Shown piece after piece: positions 2,036 to 61,868 of a stretch of 64,000 nucleotides of DNA. The position numbers and the translations under genes were made by a program. This DNA comes from Acholeplasmataceae bacterium. GTDB lineage: Bacteria > Bacillota_I > Bacilli_A > ML615J-28 > CAG-313. The stretch's first letter is position 1. Each line of letters opens with the position of its first letter. The DNA is taken from assembly GCA_012838945.1 (NCBI GenBank), contig DUOG01000083.1:16072-80071 (forward strand), given 5' to 3'. Under the pieces are notes generated by a model. It was not told the DNA's origin. It saw only the letters and a list, made by a program, of their open reading frames with translations, and ran no database searches.

Positions 2036-2084
2036 AATACTTTTCACTTTACAAAAAATAATGAATATTGTATAATATGATAAA

Positions 2085-2345
2085 TTGATGAAGAGGAGGA
2101 GTAGAAATACTCGATCATCATAAGAGAGAAGCCGGTTGGTGAAAGGCTTTATGATTGGTATTTTGAAGGTCGCCTCGGAGATGGTGAAGGGAAATAATAG
2201 TACTTTCACTCGTGTCCTAGCGTTAATGGGATTAAGTGCAAAGAAAGTAAAACCTAACTATAGTTAGGGTATTTGATTTCTTTGAATAAAGGTGGTACCG
2301 CGAATTTTCAAGTTCGTCCTTTAAGGATGGACTTTTTTTATTTTT
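2085..2345 (+). promoter_or_regulatory. T-box riboswitch leader upstream of valS (likely Val-specific)
   Basis: AGAGA box (taagagagaag), GNUGA-like element, and conserved T-box sequence aaaggtggtaccgcg at 2288-2302. Followed by hairpin plus T7 run at 2315-2340. Sits directly 5' of valS. Confidence 0.8.
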
Positions 2346-2369: not shown

Positions 2370-4988
2370 ATGAAGCGAAAAGAAATGGCCCCAAAGTACA
2401 ATTTTAAAGAAGTTGAGAAAGGGAAGTATAAATATTGGATTGACCAAGGTTTTTTCACTAGTGGTGATATTAATAAAAGACCTTATACTATTGTGATTCC
2501 ACCACCAAATGTTACTGGAAAACTTCATTTGGGTCATGCTTGGGATACGACCCTTCAAGATATTATTATCAGAAGAAAGCGAATGCAAGGTTACGATGCC
2601 TTATATTTGCCTGGAATGGACCATGCAGGTATTGCAACTCAAGCAAAAATTGATGAAAAACTAAGAAACCAAGGAATTAGCCGCTATGATTTAGGTCGTG
2701 AAGGTTTCTTGAAAGTAGCTTGGGAATGGAAAGAAGAATATGCTGACTTTATCCGTTCACAATGGGCTACGCTTGGTTTATCACTTGATTATACGAAAGA
2801 AAGATTTACCCTTGATGAGGGTCTTAATAAAGCCGTTAATAAAGTATTTATTAAACTTTATGAGGAAGGTCTAATCTATCGTGGTGAACGAATTATCAAT
2901 TGGGATGTTGAAGCAAAGACTGCCCTATCTAATATTGAAGTTGAATATAATGATATTGAAGGCGGTTACTATCACTTCGTTTATCCATTTGTTGACGGTG
3001 ATGGTGGTATCGAAATAGTAACTACCAGACCAGAAACAATGTTTGGTGATACAGCAATAATGGTTCATCCGGATGATGAACGCTACCAAAAATATATTGG
3101 TAAAAAAGTTTATATCCCGGGAACAGACCGAGCCATTCCGATTATTAGTGATGAATATGTTGATCGTGAGTTTGGAACAGGAGCAGTTAAGGTAACTCCA
3201 GCACATGACCCTAATGACTTTGAAGTTGGAGTTCGTCATCAACTTAATTTTATCATTTGTATGAATGAAGATGGAACTATGAACGAATATGCTGGCAAAT
3301 ATCAAGGCCTAGATCGTTTCGAGTGCCGTAGACAAGTTACAAATGATTTAAAAGAGTTGGGTCTATGTACTGAAGTTGAAAAAATGATCCATTCAGTCGG
3401 TCACTCTGAGCGAACTGGGGTTGTTGTTGAACCACGACTTTCTAAACAATGGTTTGTTAAAATGGAACCACTCGCTAAAGCAGTAATTGAGATGCAAGCA
3501 ACCGATGGGGCAGTAAATTTTGTTCCAGAACGTTTTGAAAAAACATTCACCAATTGGCTTGAAAACATTCAAGATTGGTGTATTTCTCGTCAATTATGGT
3601 GGGGTCATCGTATCCCTGCCTGGTATAAAGGTGAAGAAGTATATGTTGGTGAACAATGTCCTGGTGAAGGATGGGTTCAAGATGAAGACGTCCTTGATAC
3701 TTGGTTCTCTAGTGCACTTTGGCCGTTTTCAACTCTTGGATGGCCGAATACGGAGGACCCACTGTTAAAACGATATTTCCCAACTAATACTTTAGTTACG
3801 GGCTATGATATTATTTTCTTCTGGGTTACCCGAATGGTATTCCAATCTAAGCATTTCATGGGAGAACGACCATTTGAACATGTTTTAATCCATGGTTTAA
3901 TTCGTGATGAACAAGGTCGCAAAATGAGTAAATCACTTGGAAATGGTATTGACCCTATGGATCTAGTTGATTCTTATGGTTGTGATGCATTGCGTTATTT
4001 CTTAACGACTAATTCATCTCCAGGTCAAGACTTACGATATTCAGAGGAAAAGATGGGAGCTGCTTGGAACTATATTAATAAGATTTGGAACATCTCTCGC
4101 TTCATTCAAATGAATCTTGATAACCATGATTATCAAGATGAACCTTTAAATTTAGAAATATTAAATGACATTGACAAGTGGATTTTAAATAAGTTAAATT
4201 ATGTAATTGAAAATGCTGATGAATGCTACGAGAAATTTGAATTTGGTGAAGCAGCAAAATTAATCTACAACTTTGTTTGGAATGATTTTGCTTCTTGGTA
4301 TGTTGAACTTACCAAAGTAACTTTCACTGAAGGCAGTAAGGAACAAAAAACTAATGTATGTGCTTTATTAAAGTATTTGTTAAATGCTGTATTAAAACTA
4401 TTACATCCATTCATGCCGTTTGTTACTGAAGAAATATATCAAATTTTCAATGAAGGTTCAATTTGTGTGGCACCGTGGCCGACTGTTCTTAGCTTCGATA
4501 AGGATGTAAAACGATTAGAACTAGTTGATGTTTTACTTAACATCATCACAGCAGTAAGAAATATTAGAGCTGAAAAAAATGTTCCATTAAGCAAAAAGAT
4601 CAATGTTTTAATTGAAACAAAAGAAGCAGAAGTTCAAGCATTCTTACATGACCATTTGTCGTATTTAGCTCGCTTTTTGAATTTTGATCATTTAGAAATT
4701 AAAGAAGATATTGACAAAAACAATGTGATTTCCGCTGTTATTGAACGAGCCATAATTGTAATTCCTGCTGAAAATTTAATTAATATTGAAGAAGAATTGG
4801 CGCGTCTAGAAAAAGAAAAAGTACGACTTGAAAAAGAAGTTGAACGTTCAACTAAAATGCTAGGTAATCCATCCTTTAGAGAAAAAGCGCCAGCCGATAA
4901 GGTGGCTGCGGAAGAAGAAAAGTTAGCTAAATATCAAATTCAATTAACTGAAGTAATTAGATTGATTGAAGATTTAAAGAAAAAATAG
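2370..4988 (+). CDS. valS: Valine--tRNA ligase
   Basis: 872 aa. HIGH-type motif PPPNVTGKLHLGHAW and KMSKS motif (KMSKSLGN). C-terminal coiled coil. Conserved valS-folC adjacency. Confidence 0.93.
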   Translation: MKRKEMAPKYNFKEVEKGKYKYWIDQGFFTSGDINKRPYTIVIPPPNVTGKLHLGHAWDTTLQDIIIRRKRMQGYDALYLPGMDHAGIATQAKIDEKLRNQGISRYDLGREGFLKVAWEWKEEYADFIRSQWATLGLSLDYTKERFTLDEGLNKAVNKVFIKLYEEGLIYRGERIINWDVEAKTALSNIEVEYNDIEGGYYHFVYPFVDGDGGIEIVTTRPETMFGDTAIMVHPDDERYQKYIGKKVYIPGTDRAIPIISDEYVDREFGTGAVKVTPAHDPNDFEVGVRHQLNFIICMNEDGTMNEYAGKYQGLDRFECRRQVTNDLKELGLCTEVEKMIHSVGHSERTGVVVEPRLSKQWFVKMEPLAKAVIEMQATDGAVNFVPERFEKTFTNWLENIQDWCISRQLWWGHRIPAWYKGEEVYVGEQCPGEGWVQDEDVLDTWFSSALWPFSTLGWPNTEDPLLKRYFPTNTLVTGYDIIFFWVTRMVFQSKHFMGERPFEHVLIHGLIRDEQGRKMSKSLGNGIDPMDLVDSYGCDALRYFLTTNSSPGQDLRYSEEKMGAAWNYINKIWNISRFIQMNLDNHDYQDEPLNLEILNDIDKWILNKLNYVIENADECYEKFEFGEAAKLIYNFVWNDFASWYVELTKVTFTEGSKEQKTNVCALLKYLLNAVLKLLHPFMPFVTEEIYQIFNEGSICVAPWPTVLSFDKDVKRLELVDVLLNIITAVRNIRAEKNVPLSKKINVLIETKEAEVQAFLHDHLSYLARFLNFDHLEIKEDIDKNNVISAVIERAIIVIPAENLINIEEELARLEKEKVRLEKEVERSTKMLGNPSFREKAPADKVAAEEEKLAKYQIQLTEVIRLIEDLKKK

Positions 4989-4992
4989 GTAC

Positions 4993-6285
4993 ATGATTAT
5001 GTATTTAGAAACAATGACCGAATTCTTGAATTTTGTTGAAAGTCAACGCCGCTTATCCAAGAAATATTCACTTGAAAAAATGTATTATTACTGTCAATTA
5101 TTTGACCATCCAGAAAATGACTTTCGTTCAATCCATATCGGTGGTACTAATGGTAAGGGGTCAGTAGTTGCTTATATGCGTCATATTTTAAAAGAAAGTG
5201 GATACAAGGTTGCTACTTACACCTCGCCATACGTCGTTTGTTTTAATGAACGAATTACCTTTGATGGAAAATACATAAGTGATGAGGATTGTCTTAAGTA
5301 TGCCAATATAATCTTGAGTAAATATCCTCAGATTGAAAAAGAAGGGTATGAATTCCCAAGCTTCTTTGAATTTATTACTTTACTAGCATTCTTATATTTT
5401 AGGGATTGTGAGGATTTAGATTTTGCCTTGATTGAAGTTGGTTTAGGTGGTTTGCTTGATGCAACCAATGTCATTACTCCACTTCTCAGTATTATTACAA
5501 CTATTTCATTTGATCATATGAATGTACTAGGTAATACTTTGGCTGAGATTGCTGAGAATAAGTTAGGAATTGTAAAACCCGGAATTCCTCTTATCAGTGG
5601 AATCAAAGATGATAAATTACGCAAACAGTTTGTAAAACACACGAAAAAGAAAAAAACATCAGTAACTTTTACTGACTTCGATCAAATTAAAGTTGAAAAG
5701 ATGGACCTACATGGTAGTATCTTTGCGTATAAAAATGAAACACCATATGTAATTAAGATGCTAGGTGCTCATCAAATCGAAAACGCTGCTCTTGCTTTAG
5801 AAGCGATAAAATATCTGAATGAAAATGGAATCATTGATGCACCTGATAATGTTATTAGAAATGGTTTAGAAAAGACTTCATGGCCAGGAAGAGCAGAAAT
5901 TGTTCACAGAGATCCATTGATAATTCTCGATGGCGGTCATAACTTAGATGGCATAACACGGATGTGTGAGTTTATTAATTCCTTTAAAAAGAATCATTAT
6001 GTCCGTGGAGTGTTTGCTGTGGCGGCTGATAAAGATAAAGAAGTGATGATTAAAAAGATTGATGATACTTTTGATGAAATTATCTTTACAGAGTTTAGTT
6101 ATAAACGAAGTGATCATGCTTATCATCTCTATGAGCTTTCTAATCATCCAAAGAAACAATATCATGATGATATTAAAACCATTATTGATAAGGTTATAGA
6201 AGAACCAAAACCAATAAATGTGTTTTTAGGAAGTCTTTACTTTGTAAGTGAAGTTAGACAACTACTAAAAGATTTTAACAAATAA
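4993..6285 (+). CDS. folC: Folylpolyglutamate synthase / dihydrofolate synthase
   Basis: 430 aa. P-loop IHIGGTNGKGS typical of Mur-ligase family FolC. Position after valS as in Bacillus. Confidence 0.85.
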   Translation: MIMYLETMTEFLNFVESQRRLSKKYSLEKMYYYCQLFDHPENDFRSIHIGGTNGKGSVVAYMRHILKESGYKVATYTSPYVVCFNERITFDGKYISDEDCLKYANIILSKYPQIEKEGYEFPSFFEFITLLAFLYFRDCEDLDFALIEVGLGGLLDATNVITPLLSIITTISFDHMNVLGNTLAEIAENKLGIVKPGIPLISGIKDDKLRKQFVKHTKKKKTSVTFTDFDQIKVEKMDLHGSIFAYKNETPYVIKMLGAHQIENAALALEAIKYLNENGIIDAPDNVIRNGLEKTSWPGRAEIVHRDPLIILDGGHNLDGITRMCEFINSFKKNHYVRGVFAVAADKDKEVMIKKIDDTFDEIIFTEFSYKRSDHAYHLYELSNHPKKQYHDDIKTIIDKVIEEPKPINVFLGSLYFVSEVRQLLKDFNK

Positions 6286-13099: not shown

Positions 13100-13235
13100 T
13101 TATTGCTTGCTTTTTATTATCAATTGATGTATAATATGTATGTTGCAAAAGTCGAGGCAACCGCTCAGAACAGGTTTAAAGTATCTTATGATCACCTTGA
13201 TGGCGTGTCTTAGTTTATATGAGGAGGTGCAAACG
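13100..13235 (+). promoter_or_regulatory. Promoter and 5' leader of rplU-prp-rpmA operon (possible L21 leader)
   Basis: -35 ttgctt / -10 tataat (13130-13135), then a ~95-nt untranslated leader with hairpin potential before the SD gaggagg. The six-frame ORF starting at 13140 is leader, not coding. Confidence 0.45.
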
Positions 13236-26635: not shown

Positions 26636-26697
26636 CATTTGAGTGGATAATTACCCACACAATCAAAATTCAAACGCTGTAATAAGGGTTGGTAGAA
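26636..26697 (+). repeat. Copy A of ~55-60 nt conserved intergenic element (TTGAGTGGATAATTACCCACA-N-CAAACGCTGTAATAAGGGTTGG)
   Basis: Near-identical to the copy at 29878-29938. Related copies at 30122-30182 (+), 30813-30877 (-), 31097-31155 (-), 31640-31702 (-). Lies in the promoter/5' UTR region of the PAP2 gene. Confidence 0.8.
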
Positions 26698-27698: not shown

Positions 27699-27881
27699 AT
27701 GTTTGATATCTTATTGGCGATTACCATTACGTTAATAGTTACTGTTATAGTATACTTATTAATAAGAAAAGCGGTAAAAGCCCGCGCAAAATGTGACTTT
27801 GTGACATTAGGATTTATCATTTGGTTTATCCTATTGTTGACAATAGGATTAACTCTCTTGTATGTTGGATTGTTCCTATAA
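27699..27881 (+). CDS. Small two-TM membrane protein (60 aa), hypothetical
   Basis: ORF with SD aaagggggg. Two hydrophobic helices. Followed by a long hairpin terminator. Coding status unverified. Confidence 0.35.
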   Translation: MFDILLAITITLIVTVIVYLLIRKAVKARAKCDFVTLGFIIWFILLLTIGLTLLYVGLFL

Positions 27882-27962: not shown

Positions 27963-28028
27963 TATTATAAATATACTCATCACTTGTATTTTTGACTATA
28001 TTTATGTATAATAATAATGGTGATATTA

Positions 28029-29069
28029 ATGAACGGACTTAAAAATATTGATAAAATAATCATCCCGACTGATATTATTCTTGACTTAGTGGACATCTAT
28101 AAATACATTGGAAAAAATGATGACTATTATAATCGAGTTGAGAATAATTATGATATCATTTTAGAACAAACGATTGAACGTGATACTTACTTTTTAGCTA
28201 GTCTAGCTGACTTAGATCTATCAGACACAAGAATGAGATTAATTATTACTAAGAATTCGAAACCTAGAACAAAAGAAGAGGCCATTCTTGCAAATATTAA
28301 AGAGGTAGTAAAGGTTATTCATCGAAACTCTTCAGAATACATCTTTAATTCAAGTGATCTCCTAGCTATTGCAAATAAGATTTATGACAAAAACAGCGTA
28401 AAGTTTGCTAGTGAAAAGCGATCGCGTAAGACGCCGCTCGCAAGCCAAGCGTTAAGAAGTAAAAGAGTTGTATTTGATGAGATGGTAGATGAATACTCTC
28501 TTTTAATTGAGAAAGAGATACATGAGCGAATTTTCTTATCTACGATGTTTTTTGTTGACTTTATTAATTATCAACCTTTTACTGATAAGAATGAAATAAC
28601 TAGCTATTTGGCTCTCTATTACTTATTACTCAGATGCAATGTCGATGTTTTTAAATATATTAGTTTTTTTGAAAGTTGGTTTGAGGTAAAAGATGAATTT
28701 CAAAAGCAACTCATAGCAGCAAGTTTTAACTGGGAGGAAGGTTTTCCTCAAGTGTTAGGTTTGTTTAGGGTAATTTTGAAAATGATCAAATCCAGCTATC
28801 ATCGCTTAGAAGACTTTATAAAAGAATATTATTATGAAGAGAAAATAAATAAAGCAGATAATGTTGAAAATACTATTTATAAATTGCCAAACATTTTTTC
28901 AAAAGAAGATATTAAGATGATTCACCCTTATATTAGTGAATCAACAATTAATCGTACTCTAGCCAAACTACGAGATGAAAATAAAATTCGTCCACTTGGA
29001 AGAGGACGAAGCGCCAAATGGTGTAAAATCATCGAAGAAGATGATTTTGAACATATTTTTAGAGGATAA
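28029..29069 (+). CDS. Fic/DOC-family-like protein with degenerate active-site motif and C-terminal winged-helix (putative)
   Basis: Region FFVDFINYQPFTDKNEITSYLALYYLLL aligns to the Fic core HPFxDGNGRxxRLL but with H to Q and GNGR to KNEI substitutions. C-terminus INRTLAKLRDENKIRPLGRGRSAKW is wHTH-like. Confidence 0.4.
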   Translation: MNGLKNIDKIIIPTDIILDLVDIYKYIGKNDDYYNRVENNYDIILEQTIERDTYFLASLADLDLSDTRMRLIITKNSKPRTKEEAILANIKEVVKVIHRNSSEYIFNSSDLLAIANKIYDKNSVKFASEKRSRKTPLASQALRSKRVVFDEMVDEYSLLIEKEIHERIFLSTMFFVDFINYQPFTDKNEITSYLALYYLLLRCNVDVFKYISFFESWFEVKDEFQKQLIAASFNWEEGFPQVLGLFRVILKMIKSSYHRLEDFIKEYYYEEKINKADNVENTIYKLPNIFSKEDIKMIHPYISESTINRTLAKLRDENKIRPLGRGRSAKWCKIIEEDDFEHIFRG

Positions 29070-29073
29070 TCAA

Positions 29074-29871
29074 ATGAAACCTATATCGAACTATCATACT
29101 CATATTTACTTATGTAAGCATGCTACTGGTACAGTAAGAGACTATGTAGAAAAAGCTATAAGCTTAGATTATCAAGTGATTGGTATTTCAGATCACGGTC
29201 CAATTAACGAAGAATTAAAAAAACAGTTTTATACTAGACGGATGGATATGAAAGAATATCAAAATATTTACTTGAAGGATCTAGTACAATTAAAAGAAGA
29301 ATATAGAGATAAAATAACCCTTCTAGGAGCACTTGAAATTGAATTCTTTGATGAGATGGTAACTCACTATCCCAAATTCATCAATGAACTTGACTATTTA
29401 ATTTTAGGACAACACTATCTAAAGGTTGATGGTAAGTATACAAGTGTTTATCGAGGCATGACCCCGAAAAACATAAAGATCTATACTGATACCGTATTAA
29501 AAGCATTTGCCTCTGGATACTTTAAAATATTGGCTCATCCAGAAATATTCACTATGAGTTATCCAAAATGGGATGAACATTGTGAACAGGCAACGCAAAG
29601 AATAATTGAAGGTGCTAAAAAATATAATATTATCTTAGAAGTCAATGCCAATGGAATGCGACTTAATAGAGCGGCTTTAACTAAAGATAATAAGTTCACC
29701 AATTCATATCCACATTTAAATTTTTGGCAATCTGTGGCCAAGACTGATTTGCCGGTAATTGTTAATGATGATGCTCATGCAGTGGAACATCTTTGTGATC
29801 AAGCCACTTTTAGAGCTTATGATTTTGCGAGAGAACTTGGACTGAATATTATTCAAAAAATACAGCTTTGA
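29074..29871 (+). CDS. PHP-family phosphoesterase (histidinol-phosphatase HisJ/HisK-like)
   Basis: Start MKPISNYHTHIYLCKHA (YHTH metal-binding motif) at 29074 with SD agagga. Additional His/Asp motifs (GISDHGP, ILAHPE, NDDAH). About 265 aa. Confidence 0.75.
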   Translation: MKPISNYHTHIYLCKHATGTVRDYVEKAISLDYQVIGISDHGPINEELKKQFYTRRMDMKEYQNIYLKDLVQLKEEYRDKITLLGALEIEFFDEMVTHYPKFINELDYLILGQHYLKVDGKYTSVYRGMTPKNIKIYTDTVLKAFASGYFKILAHPEIFTMSYPKWDEHCEQATQRIIEGAKKYNIILEVNANGMRLNRAALTKDNKFTNSYPHLNFWQSVAKTDLPVIVNDDAHAVEHLCDQATFRAYDFARELGLNIIQKIQL

Positions 29872-29877
29872 TTAAAT

Positions 29878-29938
29878 AACTTGAATTGATAATTACCCAC
29901 AAAAACAAAACTCAAACGCTGTGACAAGGCTTATGGAC
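29878..29938 (+). repeat. Copy B of the ~55-60 nt conserved element
   Basis: ttgaattgataattacccacaaaaacaaaactcaaacgctgtgacaaggcttatgg, immediately after the PHP gene stop. Followed by a terminator hairpin. Confidence 0.8.
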
Positions 29939-29962
29939 AACCCCTTAAAAAGGGGTTTTTTG
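29938..29962 (+). terminator. Rho-independent terminator directly after repeat copy B
   Basis: caaccccttaaaaaggggtttttt. Confidence 0.75.
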
Positions 29963-30121
29963 TTTTGGGAAAGTCGTGAATTTATTTTAGCGAAGTGATG
30001 AGAAAGATTAAAATAAAATAAGGTGTGTGTAGTGAAAGTCCTAAATTTTCAGATTGTTAAAATGCAGATGGAGGACTCTAAAATATTTGAAGCTAGCCCC
30101 CTCAAAAATCAGGGCTTATAT

Positions 30122-30182
30122 GATAATTTGAGTTAACAACTATCCACGAAAAACAATTTCAAGCGCTATAAAACGGCTTATT
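30122..30182 (+). repeat. Copy C (diverged) of the conserved element
   Basis: gataatttgagttaacaactatccacgaaaaacaatttcaagcgctataaaacggcttat. Same block order (TTGAGT, xxCCAC, CAAaCGCTxT, AAGGnTTAT). Confidence 0.6.
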
Positions 30183-30812
30183 TTTATGATTCTATAATTA
30201 AAATAAGATATTTTTTTCTTAAGCTTAGTCTTTCATATGGTCTAGAGATGATAAACAGAACAAGTGAAAACAATATTCAAATTATAAGCCTAAAACAAGC
30301 GAAATAAGACATTTTTATATACTACCTAGGTTTCTTATTTAGAAGTATATAAAATCCAAAATTGAGCGTTTTTTTGTCTCAAAGTATTAGAAGTCTTTCG
30401 ACAAAATATGCTATAATTAAATATATCAAATCTTTGTTCTTGAATATGTTTGTTTTTAAAAACGGCTTAACTTTCGACAAATAAATATAATAAACTACTC
30501 TATATTGTGTTAGTAGAACCACTATTACTAGATATTGTTATTGTTGTTATGCTTCCTATAATATATATTATGTTAACTAGTTGTATTGTAAGGTAAAAAG
30601 CGGATAAAACACTAATATGTTGAAATGTTGATAACTACTAAAACACGCATTTTATTACTTATTTTCTGATCAAATAATTGACAAATCTTCTGCTTTTAAA
30701 CCGATTGATTTCTCTCACTACAAGTTTTCTTTCGATAACAATTGACAAATTAAGCAGTCCTTTTGTCATGTTTGTTAGTATTTGAAATACTTGTACTTGT
30801 TATAAGATTCTA

Positions 30813-30877
30813 TTCGACAAAATACCCCATATGTCAGCGTCTGAAATAATTTTTCATGTCCAATAGTATATTCACCT
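30813..30877 (-). repeat. Copy F (degenerate, minus orientation) of the conserved element
   Basis: Reverse complement reads gtgaatatactattggacatgaaaaattatttcagacgctgacatatggggtattttgtcgaa. Shares the CAgACGCTG and GGGTATTTTGTCG blocks with copy E. Confidence 0.45.
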
Positions 30878-31096
30878 TTTCCTACAGAGGCCTACTTTCT
30901 ACACATCTATCCTCCAAAAAAATATATTGGTAATTGGTCGTGCATTTTCTTCAGCTAATGTTTTGTGTTCAAATCTCTAAAGATCATCGTATTAATAAAA
31001 CTATTTTTTTCAAATAGTTTTGTATTTGCCTATATAAATCACTTTATTTTTAACTTGGACTTACACTTTTAAAAATCATCAAAAATAAATAAATAA

Positions 31097-31155
31097 CCAC
31101 CCCTTCTCAGAGCGTTTGAAAAATGTTTTTGTGGATATTCATCCATTCATATTTT
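31097..31155 (-). repeat. Copy D (minus orientation) of the conserved element
   Basis: Reverse complement ggatgaatatccacaaaaacatttttcaaacgctctgagaaggggtggtt. Confidence 0.7.
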
Positions 31156-31639
31156 TCTACAAGAGTCGACATTTTGATGTTTTTTGATTTGGATATATGT
31201 GTGTTTCAAAAAACTTCTTCTTACATATATGACTTGTTTTTTCCGTAAGTATAGAGTATATTTTTTTAAATATATGTTTTTTTAAAATCTATTTTTCCCT
31301 TAACATATATAGAAAAATCAAAATATCTGTTGTTCATTCTTTTCTATATAAATTGATTTTCTCAAGCTAAAAGATTTTATATATATCTTACTCCTTTTGT
31401 TTTTTTCTTCCAGATATATAATTCCCATCTGATTTTATTTTTGAGTGACATTTGTGAATTGACTTTCTATTTGATATATGTATTATCGTTGTCGATATAT
31501 TACATTTTTTAAAAATGCAAGCGACATTGAAATTGTAAAATCTTTTTTATTTAATGATTTCTTTTAAAATGTTTCATTTTTCTAGTTTATATATGTAAAT
31601 ATTTTTTCGGTACAAAATATCAAACAATCTGATTTTATC

Positions 31640-31702
31640 CGACAAAATAACCCTTCCTACAGCGTTCGAAAATTCAAAACGTGGGTAATTGTCCATTCGA
31701 AT
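31640..31702 (-). repeat. Copy E (minus orientation) of the conserved element
   Basis: Reverse complement aattcgaatggacaattacccacgttttgaattttcgaacgctgtaggaagggttattttgtcgg. Confidence 0.75.
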
Positions 31703-31850
31703 TATATAGCGAAGGCTATGTTATATATCTAAAACCTGTTTTTGACAAAATTAAAGTGACATAGGACTTATTCAAAAAAAGTAAATAAAAAAAGCGCATT
31801 ACGCGCTCATTTTATTGTTATCATATATATATAATTTGTTAAATTGATCA

Positions 31851-32642
31851 TTAGTTTAATGATGGTGAATATTCTTCATTAGCTATTATGATTTGTTTAA
31901 GTTCTAGCTTATTTTTAATATCTTTGATTAGGAACGGTAGATAAGCTATTACAAATAGGACATTAGCTAAGATAAACATTATTCCAAATCTTAACCAGAA
32001 ATTGCTTGGTAAGATATTTAATATTGAATCACCTTCAACCACACCCTCAAGATATAAGTAGTTTGCTCCTGGAATTGCTTTGTTAACAGCAATCGCTATT
32101 AAAGCTAGGATAAAAAGGGCCGCGAATGATTTAAAGTATGATCGCCAAGTTGGTCTCATTTTGTGAACAAAAATCATATAGATCATACAAATGAATAATG
32201 AAGTGTGTTCAATCCAAAATTGATAATAGCGGTAGTGTGATGGTCCAGCATTAGTAATAACAGCTGGAGTAATTAATGCGTTAACTGACCCCGCAAACAC
32301 CCAAAAGTAGTTTATATCAAAGAGTGTTTTACTTTTAGAAACCAATAAATAAGAACCGAAAATACAAGCCCAACCACAAACTCTAATCGGCAAATGTTCA
32401 ACTGGACTAGTTGAGATATTCGGATTGATTACTAGCCAATAATATGACATGTCCATAATAATCATAATAAAGGCAAAAATTAACCTTAATGATGATTCGT
32501 GTTTCCAATTTCTAATAGCATCTTTGTATTTTATAATCAAAAATATTATAATACCCATAATGATTAATGGGATAAAATGCGCTAAAGTAAAATATTTAAA
32601 TTCTCCTGGCACGCCATTATCTAAGAAGCCTAAAATATGCAT
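31851..32642 (-). CDS. Polytopic integral membrane protein (YwaF/TIGR02206-like?), hypothetical
   Basis: Highly hydrophobic, about 7 TM. Likely start MHILGF (32642) after SD aaagga. The longer ORF to 32714 lacks an SD. Confidence 0.4.
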   Translation of the reverse strand: MHILGFLDNGVPGEFKYFTLAHFIPLIIMGIIIFLIIKYKDAIRNWKHESSLRLIFAFIMIIMDMSYYWLVINPNISTSPVEHLPIRVCGWACIFGSYLLVSKSKTLFDINYFWVFAGSVNALITPAVITNAGPSHYRYYQFWIEHTSLFICMIYMIFVHKMRPTWRSYFKSFAALFILALIAIAVNKAIPGANYLYLEGVVEGDSILNILPSNFWLRFGIMFILANVLFVIAYLPFLIKDIKNKLELKQIIIANEEYSPSLN

Positions 32643-32788
32643 AACATACATCCTTTCATAGCAATAAGTAACTATGACATATTTTATCACATTTTGAAAT
32701 CTCAAGCAAAACAAATAATAAATTTAAACTTTGATTCCCAAAGTAAATTATAATAAAAAAGAATGAGATTTTAAGAATCTCATGTCTT

Positions 32789-33715: not shown

Positions 33716-34905
33716 TTATCAATTATCCTCCCCATAAGATTTGTTCCAATTTCAGGTTCTTTTACCCCAAAGTTTCCACAAACTGTTCTTCCTACTGTCG
33801 CAAATGAGTTTTGTAATGGTAAAACTCCTGGTTTAATCTGATTGTGATAGATGAACAGTGGTGGGTATTCTCTAGTATGATCAGTGCCATGATGGATCGG
33901 ATCATTTCCGTGATCGGCTGTAACCATCAAGAGATCATCATCGTTCATTTTTTCAATAAATTCTTTTAATTGAATGTCAAACTCTTCTAAACTTTTTCCA
34001 TAGCCTACTGGATCACGACGATGGCCATATAAAGCATCGAAGTCCACTAAATTAGTGAAACACAAGCCATTAAAGTCTTTATCGAGCATTCTAATTGTTT
34101 CTTCCATACCATTAGAGTTGCTCTTGGTGCGATAACTTTCGGTAATCCCTTCACCTGCAAAAATATCAAATATTTTTCCAATAGCAATTACATCATATCC
34201 AGCAGCTTTTAAAGTATCTAAAGTTGTTGCTGAGAAAGGTTTAACCGCATAATCATGACGATTAGCTGTTCGTTTAAAGTTTTCTGGTGATGTTCCTACA
34301 AATGGTCGGGCGATAATACGGCCTACAAGCCATTCAGGATTATCTAAAGTAATTTTTCGAGCAATTTCACAAATAGAATATAACTCCTCTAGCGGAACTA
34401 TTTCTTCGTGAGCAGCAATTTGTAACACCGAATCAGCCGATGTATAAACAATGATTGCTCCGGTCTTCATGTGTTCGAGACCTAAATCTTTAATAATTTC
34501 AGTTCCACTAGCACTGATATTTCCGATGACTTTTCGGCCAGTTAGTTTTTCTAATTGATCAATTAATTCTTTAGGAAAACCAGTATCAGTGAATGACGGG
34601 AATGGGGTATCAACCTTTAATCCCATTAATTCAAAGTGTCCGGTTAAAGTATCCTTTCCAACACTTATTTCTTTTAAAAGGGTAGCTATTCCTAATAAAT
34701 CTTGTTCAGGTACTGGTTTAATAACTTTATTAGGATTGATATTCCCTGCCCCTAGTTTAGTTAAAGTTGGGATTTTTATTTCTGGATAAGATTCCACAAT
34801 GTGTTTAAAGGTGTTAGAACCTTGATCATTATAAAGATGAGCATCATCAGCTTCACCAAAACCTACTGAATCCATTACTATTACAAAAACTCTTTTAAAT
34901 TTCAT
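33712..34905 (-). CDS. deoB: Phosphopentomutase
   Basis: 397 aa. N-terminus [22 protein letters not shown] typical of DeoB metal site. Adjacent xerD as in Bacillus ripX-drm. Confidence 0.88.
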
Positions 34906-35807
34906 AATACCTCTTTTCCACGCGGATGCGCGTTTTGATAAATTTCTTTGATTCGTCCTTGACTCAAGTGCGTATATATTTGAGTGGTCGAAATATCTTC
35001 ATGTCCAAGTAATTCTTGAACAAACCGTAAATCAGTGCCTGCTTCTAATAAATGAGTCGCAAAAGAATGTCGAAGGGTATGTGGCGAAATCTCTTTTGTT
35101 ATCCCAGCATTTTTACCCAAATTAATTAAAATCTTGTAAAAACCCTGGCGCGATAAAACATTACCGTGATGATTCAAAAAGACAAATCCTCGATCTTTCC
35201 CAGTTACTAATAGTTTGGTACGTCCTTCAATAATGTATTCACGTAATGCTTTAGCAGCATACTCATTTATTGGTACAATTCGTTCTTTTGAACCCTTACC
35301 TCTAATCTTGATTAAATTATTGGTTAAATGGAGATTGTCAAGCTTTAGATTTAAAAGTTCACTGACCCGCAGTCCAGAACCATATACAACTTCAAGCATT
35401 GCTTTGTTTCTCAAATCTAATGGCGTGTTACCTTCTACTACTTCTAACAGGCGTTGAGTTTCATCAATTGATAACACTACTGGCAACTTTTTATCTAACT
35501 TGGGCGACTCAATTAATCTACTTACATCTTTGTCAGTATATTTTTCTTTGTACAAAAACTTATGAAAAGACTTAATAGCACTTAAATAACGGCTTCTAGA
35601 TGATGATGAATACTTTCTTTTTCTTAGATGAGCTAGAAAATCCCGAATATGTTCATCTAAAATGTATTTCGGATCATCAACTAAAGATTTTTCTTTTAAA
35701 AACTCTAGATATTTTTCAATATCATTCATATATGAATTAATGGTATTTTCACTAACCATCTTTTCAGTTGCTAGATAGTATTTGTATTCTATTGCTAATT
35801 CATCCAT
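34902..35807 (-). CDS. xerD: Tyrosine recombinase XerD
   Basis: 301 aa. C-terminal catalytic region [39 protein letters not shown] (R..HxxR..Y). Confidence 0.85.
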
Positions 35808-46204: not shown

Positions 46205-46310
46205 TGAAAAGAGAACTTTCGTTCCCTACGATGGCATTACCCAACAGGTTCAACGGGTCGTTCTTGAAAACCTCTCAGCCGCATAATTGCAGCTCCCCGA
46301 CTCATTTATT
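46205..46310 (-). ncRNA. TPP (THI-box) riboswitch controlling thiT
   Basis: Minus-strand sequence ggggagc...gctgagag...gacccgttgaacctgttgggtaatgccatcgtagggaa matches the TPP aptamer core (CUGAGA, ACCCGUUGAACCUG, GGUAAUxCCAxCGUAGGGAA). Upstream promoter tttact-17-tataat. Downstream anti-SD pairing ctcttttc / gaaaagag. Confidence 0.88.
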
Positions 46311-55161: not shown

Positions 55162-57216
55162 CTATTTAAATTCTTTTAATTTATCTCCAAGTAAATCTGC
55201 GATTGTTGTCGTTGGAATACTCTCTGCTTGTTCTTTGAAGTATTGATTGAAAGTTTCACGTTCTTTAGCATATTGATAAGATTTAGCACTAACAACTAAA
55301 CGAGCTCTTAGTGGTTCAAATGTTTTTACTAAAACATTGATTTCATCATCAATATTTAATACTTCTTCTGGTTTAGAAATTCTTTTTTCATTTGTAATTT
55401 CCGCGATTGGTAAAAAGCCCATAACGTCTTTATAAGAAACTTGTGCACCTGCTTGATTGAAGCCGACAACTTTAACTTTGATTGCGTCGCCAACATTAAG
55501 TTTGATGTTGCCCCAAGTATTTTCTTTTGTTTCGCGGTGAGATAGAGTAATACGACGAGCTTTATTATCAATATTGATAACCTTAACTTTTATCGTATCT
55601 CCAACTTCATATTGACCTTCTAATCTTTCAGTTATTAGCCAAGAATATTCACGAGCTGGCATTAATCCAGAAACTTCTTCTGTCATTTTAATAATTAAAC
55701 CAGCATCAATAATTTTAACGATTTCACCGTCAAAAATATCGCCTACTTGATATTTTTCTGTTAAATCATCCCATGGATGTTTAACAAGAGCTTTCATTGA
55801 TAGTCCAATTTTGTTATCTGCTAAGTTGATGATTTTAACTTTTACGATATCACCAATACTTAAATAATCTCCTACATTGCGTACTCGTTTATGAGTAATT
55901 TCAGTACGATGTAATAATCCGGTAACTTTGCCGATGTCGATAATAGCACCAAAATCTTTAAGGTCTACTACCTTACCTTCGACAACCATACCAACTTCTA
56001 AATTACTGTAAGCTTCTTCTCGCTCTAAACGGGCAGTTTTGTTTGCTGCTATGATTTGAGAAACAGTAACTTGTAATTTGTTAAAATTAACATTTGTAAC
56101 TACTACATCAATAGTAGCCTTTTCTTTTCTTAATTGATGAAGTGCTTTACTATTTAAATAACTTTGTCTTAAAGGTAAATAAACATTAAAGTCATTATAG
56201 TTTAGATAAGCTCCCCGAGAATCAACACGAACAACTTGTGCAGAAATAATTTCTTCTGTTTCTCTTAATTGTTCGAATGTTGGTAATATTTCCAATACCT
56301 TATAAAGTCTTGTCGATAAAATCAATAAAGGTTCCCCGGTTTCCTTATCTTTATCAATTTGTTTAATAAGGGCTTTAAACTCTCCGCCTTCATTATATTG
56401 ATCTGATAATCTTTGTCCTTCCGAATATCCCTCGATGTCATTACTATAAATAACAGCTTTACTGTCACCTACAATTAAATAAAGGGCATCTCTAGTCACA
56501 TTAGTGATTGTCCCCACTACCTCTTGTCCGACAGTTAATTGTAATTCGCTCATTTTCAATAAGCCCCTTTCATTAATTAATAAAACTATAGTGTCGACTA
56601 CTTCATCAATTGTCATGTTCGAAGTGTCGATGACGACCGCGTCGTCTGCTTTTTTTAACGGACTAACTTCTCTAGTTGAATCCTTTAAATCGCGAATCTC
56701 AATTTCTTTTTGAATCTCCGCAATCGTTTGATCAATTCCTTTACTTTTACGTTCTATCATTCGCCTCTTGGCCCGCTCATAGGACGATGCATCTAAATAG
56801 ATCTTTAAGTCCGCATCCGGTAATACAACCGTACCAATATCGCGTCCATCCATCACAACGTCTTTATCTTTACTCATTTTACGTTGATATTGGACTAGAT
56901 AATCCCGCACAAAGGGAATCTTTGAAGGAGTTGATACATTCTCAGTAACTTCAAGAGTTCTTATTTCTTTGGAAACATCTTTTCCATCGAGATAAATACA
57001 ATTATCTTTAAAATTAAAAGTCGTGTCTCTTAAGAAGTCGTATGATTTTGGGTCTTCTAAATCTAATCCTAATTGTAGTGCCTTGTAAGTTACTGCTCGA
57101 TACATTGCTCCGGTGTCAATATAGACAAATCCTAATTTTGAAGCAATCTTTTGAGCAATCGTACTTTTCCCAGCACCAGCGGGTCCGTCGATTGCAATTT
57201 TTATCATTTGTATCAC
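55162..57216 (-). CDS. Fused cytidylate kinase / 30S ribosomal protein S1 (four S1 domains)
   Basis: 684 aa. N-terminal Cmk (IAIDGPAGAGKSTIA, about 220 aa) continuous with four S1 repeats (GQEVVGTITNV, GMVVEGKVVDLKDFGAIIDIG, etc.). No stop separating cmk and rpsA. Confidence 0.85.
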   Translation of the reverse strand: MIQMIKIAIDGPAGAGKSTIAQKIASKLGFVYIDTGAMYRAVTYKALQLGLDLEDPKSYDFLRDTTFNFKDNCIYLDGKDVSKEIRTLEVTENVSTPSKIPFVRDYLVQYQRKMSKDKDVVMDGRDIGTVVLPDADLKIYLDASSYERAKRRMIERKSKGIDQTIAEIQKEIEIRDLKDSTREVSPLKKADDAVVIDTSNMTIDEVVDTIVLLINERGLLKMSELQLTVGQEVVGTITNVTRDALYLIVGDSKAVIYSNDIEGYSEGQRLSDQYNEGGEFKALIKQIDKDKETGEPLLILSTRLYKVLEILPTFEQLRETEEIISAQVVRVDSRGAYLNYNDFNVYLPLRQSYLNSKALHQLRKEKATIDVVVTNVNFNKLQVTVSQIIAANKTARLEREEAYSNLEVGMVVEGKVVDLKDFGAIIDIGKVTGLLHRTEITHKRVRNVGDYLSIGDIVKVKIINLADNKIGLSMKALVKHPWDDLTEKYQVGDIFDGEIVKIIDAGLIIKMTEEVSGLMPAREYSWLITERLEGQYEVGDTIKVKVINIDNKARRITLSHRETKENTWGNIKLNVGDAIKVKVVGFNQAGAQVSYKDVMGFLPIAEITNEKRISKPEEVLNIDDEINVLVKTFEPLRARLVVSAKSYQYAKERETFNQYFKEQAESIPTTTIADLLGDKLKEFK

Positions 57217-57376: not shown

Positions 57377-61868
<4,492 letters not shown>

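Follow-up and report, generated by a model that had tools for sequence, protein, structure and literature searches.

A dif locus with polar repeats in a gene-free replication terminus region of an uncultured Bacilli lineage

Chromosome dimers are resolved at cell division by XerCD recombination at dif, and in both model organisms with polar fork traps the gene for the trap protein (RTP or Tus) adjoins the innermost Ter site. Here, we describe a locus that bears comparison with these and related systems: a gene-free, AT-rich spacer of ~1.98 kb (positions 29872–31850, no strand assigned) in a 64,000-nucleotide stretch of contig DUOG01000083.1 of an Acholeplasmataceae bacterium (the whole stretch is hereafter called ‘the window’). 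The evidence of open reading frames (ORFs), GC skew, and gene orientation marks this gap as a replichore junction, and it contains a dif site and most copies of a ~58-nt repeat, all of which point at dif. The host is an uncultured, low-G+C, spore-forming Bacilli lineage, whose homologues carry the source names ‘Bacilli bacterium’, ‘Mycoplasmatota bacterium’, and ‘Izimaplasma’.

Several described systems act on the chromosome terminus through short DNA sites. Polar fork traps are known as two unrelated systems, Tus–Ter and RTP–Ter, each present in a small bacterial group; in Bacillus subtilis, the innermost Ter sites are very close, and each site is formed by two imperfect inverted repeats (PMC13220808). 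Short polar motifs have been described as FtsK orienting polar sequences (KOPS; GGGNAGGG), as the SpoIIIE recognition sequence (SRS) of B. subtilis (GAGAAGGG), and as the KOPS of Lactococcus lactis (GAAGAAG) (PMC3384302). In the terminus region of B. subtilis, SMC is unloaded by XerD at scattered dif-like sequences, the XerD-binding sites (XDS), according to the passages of PMC11840125 and PMC11894783 that cite Karaboja et al. (2021). Finally, the sequence of B. subtilis dif, ACTTCCTAGAATATATATTATGTAAACT, is given in PMC3025954.

The dif site and the replication terminus

The window contains a 28-bp site, GCTTCCTATAATATATATTATGTTAACT (30551–30578, plus strand), that shares 25 of its 28 positions with the dif defined by experiment in B. 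subtilis. Two 11-nt arms surround a 6-nt centre (GCTTCCTATAA-TATATA-TTATGTTAACT), as expected of an XerC/XerD chromosome-dimer-resolution site, and the site is unique in the window, where the next-best sequence has at least 9 mismatches in 28 positions. We take the right-hand 11 nt of Escherichia coli dif to be its XerD arm. With this sequence (TTATGTTAAAT, from PMC3025954), the XerD arm of the new site agrees at 10 of 11 positions.

Gene orientation and base composition place dif at the meeting point of two replichores. Nearly all substantial ORFs between 194 and 29871 are on the plus strand, and nearly all between 31851 and 63957 are on the minus strand. GC skew is +0.08 to +0.17 up to ~30 kb, switches at ~30.4 kb, and is −0.07 to −0.18 thereafter; cumulative GC skew has its maximum at 28–32 kb. 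The change of sign, together with the cumulative peak, indicates converging replication forks, and because gene orientation and skew both switch inside the gap, it is there that the replichores meet. A xerD gene (34902–35807, minus strand) lies 4.3 kb from dif. It encodes a ripX-type tyrosine recombinase that scores 355.8 bits against TIGR02225 recomb_XerD (cut-off 329.6) and has the Pfam Phage_integrase domain and a SAM-like N-terminal domain; a second Xer gene (xerC) was not seen in the 64-kb window. Judged by its sequence, the stretch is almost certainly a replication terminus with its XerCD–dif chromosome-dimer-resolution locus.

This annotation explains a non-coding tract that had seemed mysterious. 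The gap extends from the stop codon of a PHP-family histidinol-phosphatase-like gene (28975–29871, plus strand) to that of a TMEM164/YwaF-family membrane protein gene (31851–32714, minus strand). As the initial annotation of this DNA had stated, the stretch between 29871 and 31851 lacks ORFs of at least 60 aa (the longest is 47 aa), and the tract is AT-rich: G+C is 26.5% across the gap, with a local minimum of 21%, as against 31–37% in the flanking coding DNA. Gene calls on conspecific contigs (metagenomic contigs or contigs of metagenome-assembled genomes) leave the ~1.98-kb gap empty on the nine that span it, except for two tiny calls on one of them. The further claims that this is no ordinary promoter or terminator spacer and that the repeats are real also stand. 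The suggestion of a recombinogenic hotspot holds only loosely, in that the gap contains a site for XerCD site-specific recombination; neither dif nor the terminus had been recognised, nor had the convergent gene orientation and the switch in GC skew.

Comparison with relatives, recommended at the outset, shows that dif and its surroundings are conserved across species. Relatives were found through the PHP protein, in contigs L012 and L020 (75% protein identity), L013 (64%), and L014 (54%); a search of a genome-contig collection with this protein yielded a single relative, at 35% identity, the species itself being absent there, and a second TMEM164 relative (L022, 67%) has a different, non-terminus context. 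In L012 and L020, a gene-free gap of ~2 kb (~1.99 kb in L012) separates the same two genes. A 22-nt dif core (CTTCCTATAATATATATTATGT) is identical in L012, L013, and L014, where it follows the PHP gene. Alignments to the relatives delimit a conserved non-coding core around dif (30270–30750, no strand assigned): ~230 bp (30474–30699) align to L012 at 74%, a conservation equal to that of the coding flanks; blocks of ~85–105 bp near dif align to L013 and L014; and the wider core of ~480 bp, drawn from tblastx and multiple alignments, is shared with L013. The remainder of the gap cannot be aligned to the relatives. No consensus RNA structure was found in the dif flank on either strand; it is as DNA that the flank is conserved.

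To the right of dif, this core contains two blocks kept in four species. The first, AAGGTAAAAAGC (30590–30601, plus strand), stands at a fixed distance, with AAGGT.A.AAGC invariant in the four species and beginning 11 nt past dif. The second, ATGTTGATAACT (30625–30636, plus strand), is an XerD-arm-like half-site ~47 nt from dif; ATGTT.A.AAC is kept in the four species, and the L014 version reads TTATGTTAATAACT. The two blocks may constitute an accessory site for XerD or for another protein.

The locus thus resembles the CodV/RipX–dif system of B. subtilis and other Firmicutes in the length and sequence of the site (28 bp, 25 of 28 positions), its single copy in the window, the switch in skew, the convergent replichores, and the presence of xerD. 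It differs from the B. subtilis dif in lying inside an unusually long gene-free tract of ~2 kb and in having a conserved flank of ~230–480 bp with a fixed block and an extra XerD-arm-like half-site. The conspecific strain L005 has two substitutions inside dif, at window positions 30551 and 30564: the first, G>A at the first base, produces the ACTTCC form of the relatives, and the second is T>A in the central hexamer; these could be real variation or assembly errors. The assignment of dif as such is ordinary, and the part worth following is the conserved polar repeat array around it.

The 58-nt repeats and their polarity

Six copies of the repeat, here lettered A to F, were delimited with nhmmer. 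Three are on the plus strand to the left of dif: copy A (26636–26693, E = 2.4e-16), between rluB and a PAP2 phosphatase gene and 3.9 kb from dif; copy B (29878–29935, E = 4.4e-15), which starts 6 nt past the stop codon of the PHP gene; and copy C (30125–30182, E = 4e-13), 426 nt from dif. The other three are on the minus strand to its right: copy F (30857–30821, E = 0.012), a degenerate copy with an indel in block 1 that is fused to a TTGTCGAA box; copy D (31153–31096, E = 1.2e-14), which contains GAGAAGGG; and copy E (31703–31646, E = 3.6e-16), which is followed by TTGTCGGA. All six point at dif. The initial annotation had described copies of ~55–60 nt in the order plus, plus, minus, minus, minus, which are B, C, F, D, and E; copy A is a sixth copy, also strong, outside the coordinates that it had given. 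With nhmmer, no further copies were found in the other ~55 kb of the window (~50 intergenic regions). A doubtful partial match inside a hemW-like gene (36718–36684, minus strand, E = 0.0011) has an exact CCAC-N11-TCAAACGCT, an inverted AGAGCGTTTG just upstream, and the polarity of the right-hand copies; it may be a coding-embedded copy or due to chance. A loose version of the repeat pattern gives 5 matches against 0.45 expected.

The consensus is bipartite: block 1 (GAATGGATAATTAYCCAC), in part a palindrome (4–7 of 8 dyad pairs), is separated from block 2 (TCRAACGCTnTnnnAAGG(G)TTAT) by a spacer that varies in sequence but is always exactly 11 nt long. Mean column identity among the copies is 67%, and conservation is limited to the two blocks.

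The order and polarity of the copies are kept in L012, although the coding DNA has diverged by ~25%. From left to right, L012 has a degenerate plus-strand copy upstream of PAP2 (486–534), orthologous to copy A, a plus-strand copy at 3782, dif at 4212, and minus-strand copies at 4466 (weak), 4950, and 5705. The ortholog of copy C (L012 3782–3836) lies 430 nt left of dif, within 4 nt of the spacing in the window, and is 81% identical over 70 nt; the counterpart of copy E (L012 5705–5649, minus strand) is 79% identical; and copies D and F have positional counterparts at L012 4950–4897 and 4466–4424 (both minus strand). L012 lacks copy B along with ~240 nt of the DNA around it, and in L013 a minus-strand copy lies to the right of dif, at a distance of 600 nt. 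Both blocks are kept in the C and E pairs (79–81%), and the DNA around the copies is beyond alignment, which points to purifying selection on each copy in place.

Repeats of this kind could also be selfish or neutral elements, similar to repetitive extragenic palindromic (REP) sequences, bacterial interspersed mosaic elements (BIMEs), or miniature inverted-repeat transposable elements (MITEs), that settle past stop codons in transcribed intergenic DNA and have accumulated in the only large non-coding tract. Their polarity would then be a by-product of strand-biased insertion (replication-coupled single-strand transposition) or of symmetric inversions around the terminus. The likeness is considerable: the repeats are short, intergenic, partly palindromic, and co-oriented with transcription, and about half of the strong copies (A, B, L012a, L012d, and those of L013 and L016) start 6–22 nt past a co-oriented stop codon. 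About half of the copies also have an inverted partial block 2 just upstream, giving them the shape of an element with terminal inverted repeats or of a hairpin, and points such as these keep a REP-like or 3′-untranslated-region (3′-UTR) reading alive. The absence from L012 of copy B with its surroundings would fit mobility, as would an insertion of 44 nt in copy E of strain L004 (at window position 31667), apparently a tandem duplication, that adds a second block 2 and box. Moreover, one good copy is found outside any terminus context, at 5740–5795 of a 7005-bp phage contig (L016, identical to L019; an IMG/VR uncultivated viral genome, UViG), where it lies between genes for 97 and 76 aa, again with an inverted partial block 2 just upstream; this contig encodes a Firmicutes-type large terminase.

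Other observations fit poorly with such elements, which would be expected in higher copy number and with less divergence. The copies are only ~67% alike, with conservation confined to the two blocks; they occupy orthologous positions in a second species, and since their order and polarity persist between flanks that can no longer be aligned, selection in place accounts for them better than recent mobility does. Target-site duplications are absent, no transposase or RAYT-like gene was found among the scanned window ORFs, and the rest of the window is free of copies. Strict-pattern scans of metagenome and viral contig collections gave a single true extra copy, that of the phage contig, and a blastn search of GenBank phages with copy E gave no match. 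We regard a REP- or MITE-like origin, including the decayed MITE cluster suggested in the initial annotation, as unlikely, although it is the main rival to our own reading.

Could the repeats instead be traces of protein-coding sequence? In one frame, all copies read (M/V/I)-D-N-Y-P-x4-S-N-A-x2-R, so that the copies might be 5′-end remnants of a gene or small ORFs. Differences among the copies include changes of synonymous type (TAC/TAT, GAT/GAC, TCA/TCG, and AGG/CGG), pairwise codon differences in this frame are 104 synonymous to 365 non-synonymous as against 70 to 385 and 59 to 384 in the other frames, and one contig has a gene call of 25 aa at copy D. Yet 2 of 10 copies have in-frame stop codons, 5 lack a usual start codon (having ATT or GTT), none has a Shine–Dalgarno sequence, and conservation does not extend past codon 16. 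A peptide-profile search of 5.8 billion proteins returned only the one conspecific 25-aa call, and hence no family. In tblastn with the neighbouring proteins of the relatives and tblastx between the gaps, no pseudogene or other protein-level remnant was found; the similarity that these searches do give is in all frames, which is the mark of similarity at the DNA level. A coding origin is hardly credible, and the serial gene duplication and decay once proposed for the tract finds no support.

A role as RNA has somewhat more in its favour. The repeats would then be elements for processing, stability, or protein binding in 3′-UTRs or between cistrons, or the 5′ parts of small RNAs whose transcription runs toward dif from both sides. 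Their orientation is that of the flanking genes, the copies A, B, L012a, L013, and L016 would share a transcript with the gene upstream of them, and A, E, and L016 can form a hairpin with block 2 and its inverted copy as the stem. Against this, single-sequence folds of 10 copies have z-scores of +1.1 to −2.2 relative to shuffles, C, D, and the L012 copies lack the hairpin, no covariation is seen, and TGG/TTG variants break a small stem in block 1. The inner copies C, D, and E are beyond the strong terminators of the flanking genes, namely an intrinsic terminator of the PHP gene (29939–29957, plus strand; an 8-pair stem followed by a T-run) and an intrinsic, bidirectional one of the TMEM164/YwaF-family gene (31792–31808, minus strand; terminator scan). 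No internal terminators were found within the gap, and a promoter scan of it gave 11 sigma-70-like sites against 16.3 expected, hence no excess. A tRNA/tmRNA scan was negative, Rfam at gathering threshold over the whole window had no match in the gap, and Rfam at E up to 5 gave only three chance-level matches there (SSRC41, snoR4a, and mir-567, E 3–4). We consider an RNA function improbable, and the small-RNA array that had been entertained for this tract is not supported by these results.

The inverted arrangement of the copies also raised the idea that the dif segment is invertible or a hotspot for homologous recombination. Inverted copies do flank dif, and 55 nt of them are complementary at 76% over a distance of 1172 nt. 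However, 10 conspecific contigs from different samples are 99.6–99.9% identical to the window and collinear with it, with no inversion and no presence/absence variation; the arms are short and only ~75% alike, and no invertase gene is adjacent. There is next to nothing to recommend an invertible segment. The near-identity of these contigs also means that they provide no comparative constraint. Within the species, variable columns number 46, plus one 44-nt insertion, in the 1979 bp of the gap, versus 29 in ~5000 bp of flanks, a roughly 4-fold difference.

For the 58-nt repeats, we tentatively put forward a reading that we hold at somewhat less than even: they may be selected, polar, protein-binding DNA sites with a function at the terminus. 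The exact 11-nt spacing in five strong copies, combined with a spacer of varying sequence, is consistent with such sites. A sequence-specific DNA-binding protein would occupy the repeats, and their polarity would matter for a terminus process: candidate roles are polar fork arrest in the manner of Ter, shielding of dif, and the guidance or halting of a DNA translocase or condensin in its vicinity, in the manner of KOPS and SRS or of XDS. As an explanation of the whole, the combination of a terminus and dif locus with repeats that are selected polar sites is the one that we moderately favour. The phage-borne copy does not contradict a protein-site reading, since phage phi29 carries host parS and Spo0A sites (PMC2731898).

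A number of points weigh against this combined explanation. The terminus assignment has the 64-kb window as its scope. No protein that binds the repeats was identified, and Pfam revealed no RTP or Tus domain in the scanned window ORFs of at least 90 aa (all of these except four that overlap longer genes). All genes co-orient with replication, so the mirrored polarity of the repeats is confounded with, and inseparable from, the direction of transcription; an element coupled to transcription or replication, or one spread by symmetric inversions, would have the same polarity. With ~6 copies, polarity alone amounts to about p = 0.03. The gap holds approximately one-third of the non-coding DNA of the window, which makes clustering within it less striking. 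The placement of about half of the strong copies just past co-oriented stop codons has to be counted here as well. Polymorphism within the species is not clearly lower in the repeats than elsewhere in the gap, and with only three species carrying the repeat, the comparative evidence is thin.

Compared with the known fork traps, the repeats share the arrangement of asymmetric sites in two opposed groups that flank the terminus and dif, both here and in L012, and block 1, partly palindromic and with a second block adjacent, recalls RTP–Ter. They differ in length (~58 nt versus 23 or 32 bp), in their confinement to ~4–6 kb around dif, as opposed to a spread over 10–40% of the chromosome, and in the lack of an RTP or Tus domain in the scanned ORFs. 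We know of no sequence resemblance between the repeat and either type of Ter.

Similarity to KOPS and SRS lies in the use of polar leading-strand motifs directed toward dif: copy D contains the B. subtilis SRS, and several right-hand copies have AGAAGGG or GGAAGGG in the permissive orientation. Those motifs are 7–8-mers found genome-wide, whereas the repeat is 58 nt long and occurs within ~6 kb of dif. GAAGAAG is a separate candidate: in the window it shows a 35:2 skew toward dif, a count confounded with the coding strand. On the left of dif, L013 carries AGAAGAAG; on the right, it carries CTTCTTCT. An SRS identity was rejected, as AGAAGGG is unskewed (4:4). A DnaA-box cluster was likewise rejected: block 1 resembles TTATCCACA, but the window as a whole has a box with at most one mismatch in about every 2.4 kb, and just three are in the gap. 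When the copies were compared by eye with known motifs, neither sigma-F/G/E/K/H and extracytoplasmic function (ECF) sigma factor spacing nor cre, PurBox, CodY, LexA, Fur/Zur, ARG box, boxA, or matS fits across the copies.

Boxes and patches near dif

A second type of short motif is concentrated around dif. TYGACAAAW, which comprises TTGACAAAT-type boxes, occurs 15 times in the window (6.9 ± 2.6 expected), and 6 of the 15 are within 1.35 kb (30398–31750), all on the plus strand and on both sides of dif. Repeated boxes in the gap had been noted in the initial annotation, and their excess and clustering are real. On the opposite strand, they read TTGTCRAW, with one shared orientation and a spacing of 64–77 bp. 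Exact TGTCGAA is found 10 times in the window, including 3 within 420 bp of dif.

Individual boxes recur in the relatives. The TTGTCGAA box at 30397–30404 (minus strand), which contains TGTCGAA, keeps its position in L013 and partly in L012, and that at 30473–30480 (minus strand) has CGACAAA conserved in three species. A third (30813–30820, minus strand) forms the 3′ end of copy F. Weaker TTGACAAAT boxes (reverse complement TTGTCAA) are present at 30678–30686 (plus strand), where AATTGACAAA is invariant in three species, and at 30742–30750 (plus strand), which aligns to TTCGACAAT in L012 and TTGACAAAT in L013; other weaker boxes of the TTGTCRAW type are at 31637 and 31742 (minus strand). The same box also terminates copies E and F, the copy in L013, and the weak copy at L012 4466. 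Across the three species, only the TTGTC core is invariant.

The 0A-boxes bound by Spo0A~P are perfect or imperfect heptamers, often in pairs 3 bp apart. Their consensus is TGTCGAA (PMC2731898, PMC5295017). The resemblance consists of exact TGTCGAA sequences that cluster, in a spore-former, within non-coding DNA concerned with chromosome maintenance, near DnaA-box-like sequence (block 1 contains TTAYCCAC), and phages, too, carry sites for host proteins. Known clusters of Spo0A boxes are at the B. subtilis oriC, in phage phi29, and at promoters, unlike the present ones at a terminus, and SpoIIID-type (RRACAR) or other regulators could fit the candidate boxes equally well. Recruitment of Spo0A or a similar regulator by the box array of this spore-former is weakly suggested and may serve as a lead.

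In the right half of the gap, ~11 ATATAT(GT) patches form an array (31193–31728, no strand assigned) that is absent from the L012 gap and hence lineage-specific. ATATAT occurs 11 times in 31170–31740 (1.16 ± 1.1 expected), and ATATGT/ACATAT occurs 6 times (0.83 expected); none of 1000 dinucleotide-preserving shuffles reached either count, in agreement with the many short palindromic patches reported earlier. No larger repeat unit was detected in the array, a tandem-repeat finder returning only a trivial AT repeat of 16–17 nt. Two patches look like the beginning of the XerD arm, namely TATGTAAA at 31592 (plus strand) and TATGTTAA on the minus strand at 31300 (TTAACATA on the plus strand).

The gap of L012 contains two 11-mers, TTATGTAAACA at 5243–5253 (plus strand) and TTATGTAAATT at ~5379–5389 (minus strand), each of which differs at a single position from the XerD arm of B. 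subtilis, TTATGTAAACT. These are possible XDS-like XerD sites. Taken by description only, XDS may have parallels here in the conserved XerD-arm-like half-site 47 nt from dif, in TATGTWAA patches, and in these 10-of-11 matches to the XerD arm; the 58-nt repeat differs from XDS in having no similarity to the XerD arm.

Such arm-like sequences might also be what is left of elements integrated at dif, either integrative mobile elements exploiting Xer (IMEX) or XerCD-using phages, in which case the gap would be their decayed remnant. This would account for its AT-richness, for the dif-half-like ATATATGT patches, and for the phage-borne repeat copy, and it would be in keeping with the ATATAT(GT) enrichment, the two patches and the two L012 11-mers that resemble the XerD arm, and the lineage-specific right half of the gap. 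However, the window has neither a second dif nor a good pseudo-dif, gene remnants are lacking, two species agree in the length of the gap and in the order of the repeats, and the conspecific contigs show no gain or loss of segments. Decay of dif-integrated elements is, in our estimation, very improbable.

Beyond the combination favoured above, one could imagine, on motif content and arrangement, that the repeats are the sites of a third, unrelated terminus system, either a fork trap or a polar barrier to, or loader of, SpoIIIE/SftA or SMC at dif. They would be set in a compact gene-free ‘terminus cassette’ of ~2 kb that would also recruit a sporulation regulator through TGTCGAA-type boxes and would have been copied by at least one phage. 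We rate this extended version as distinctly unlikely. What the locus offers is a dif region that is small, conserved, and free of genes, in which candidate protein-binding DNA forms three layers (the polar 58-nt repeats, the TTGTCRAW boxes with their phasing, and the extra XerD-arm-like half-sites), and thereby a testable model for replication termination, translocase arrival, and condensin unloading at dif in a lineage without a cultured representative. Should the repeats be only REP-like passengers, the finding would amount to no more than an ordinary, though useful, annotation of a dif site and terminus.

Other features of the window

The remainder of the window is occupied by housekeeping genes (valS, rplU–rpmA, obg, mutSL, miaA, dacB, spmAB, rluB, deoB, hemW, lepA, der, cmk–rpsA, and plsY) and includes the sporulation genes spoIIM and spmAB. 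Directly upstream of the PHP gene, a 350-aa protein (28017–29069, plus strand) without a significant Pfam match resembles a Fido-domain protein (PDB 8uqu, E = 1e-14); it has a weak Fic match and, by eye, a winged-helix-like segment at its C-terminus. The gene for this Fic-like protein adjoins the PHP gene in all four species, including L014, which has no repeats, and the protein is a candidate for DNA binding near the terminus. The longest ORF of the PHP gene (28975–29871) overlaps the upstream gene by 95 nt; gene callers on other contigs choose a later start (265 or 276 aa), which makes 29044 or 29077 the probable true start. Between the PAP2 and Fic-like genes, a 60-aa hydrophobic ORF (27699–27881, plus strand) with a strong ribosome-binding site is called in conspecific contigs and in L012 as well, and is probably a real small membrane protein.

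Farther from dif, at ~27–31 kb, a gene pair for the A and B subunits of a type IIA topoisomerase (57377–61847, minus strand) is parE/parC-like, though it may encode a gyrase. If the pair is Topo IV, chromosome-unlinking genes, with xerD 4.3 kb from dif, would cluster near the terminus. Three Rfam families exceed their gathering thresholds in the window: a T-box leader (2079–2324, plus strand) upstream of valS, an L21 leader (13149–13220, plus strand) upstream of rplU, and a thiamine pyrophosphate (TPP) riboswitch (46206–46309, minus strand) upstream of a thiT-type thiamine transporter gene. Lastly, a single ORF of 684 aa (55162–57216, minus strand) encodes a cytidylate kinase fused to S1 RNA-binding domains, a cmk–rpsA fusion.

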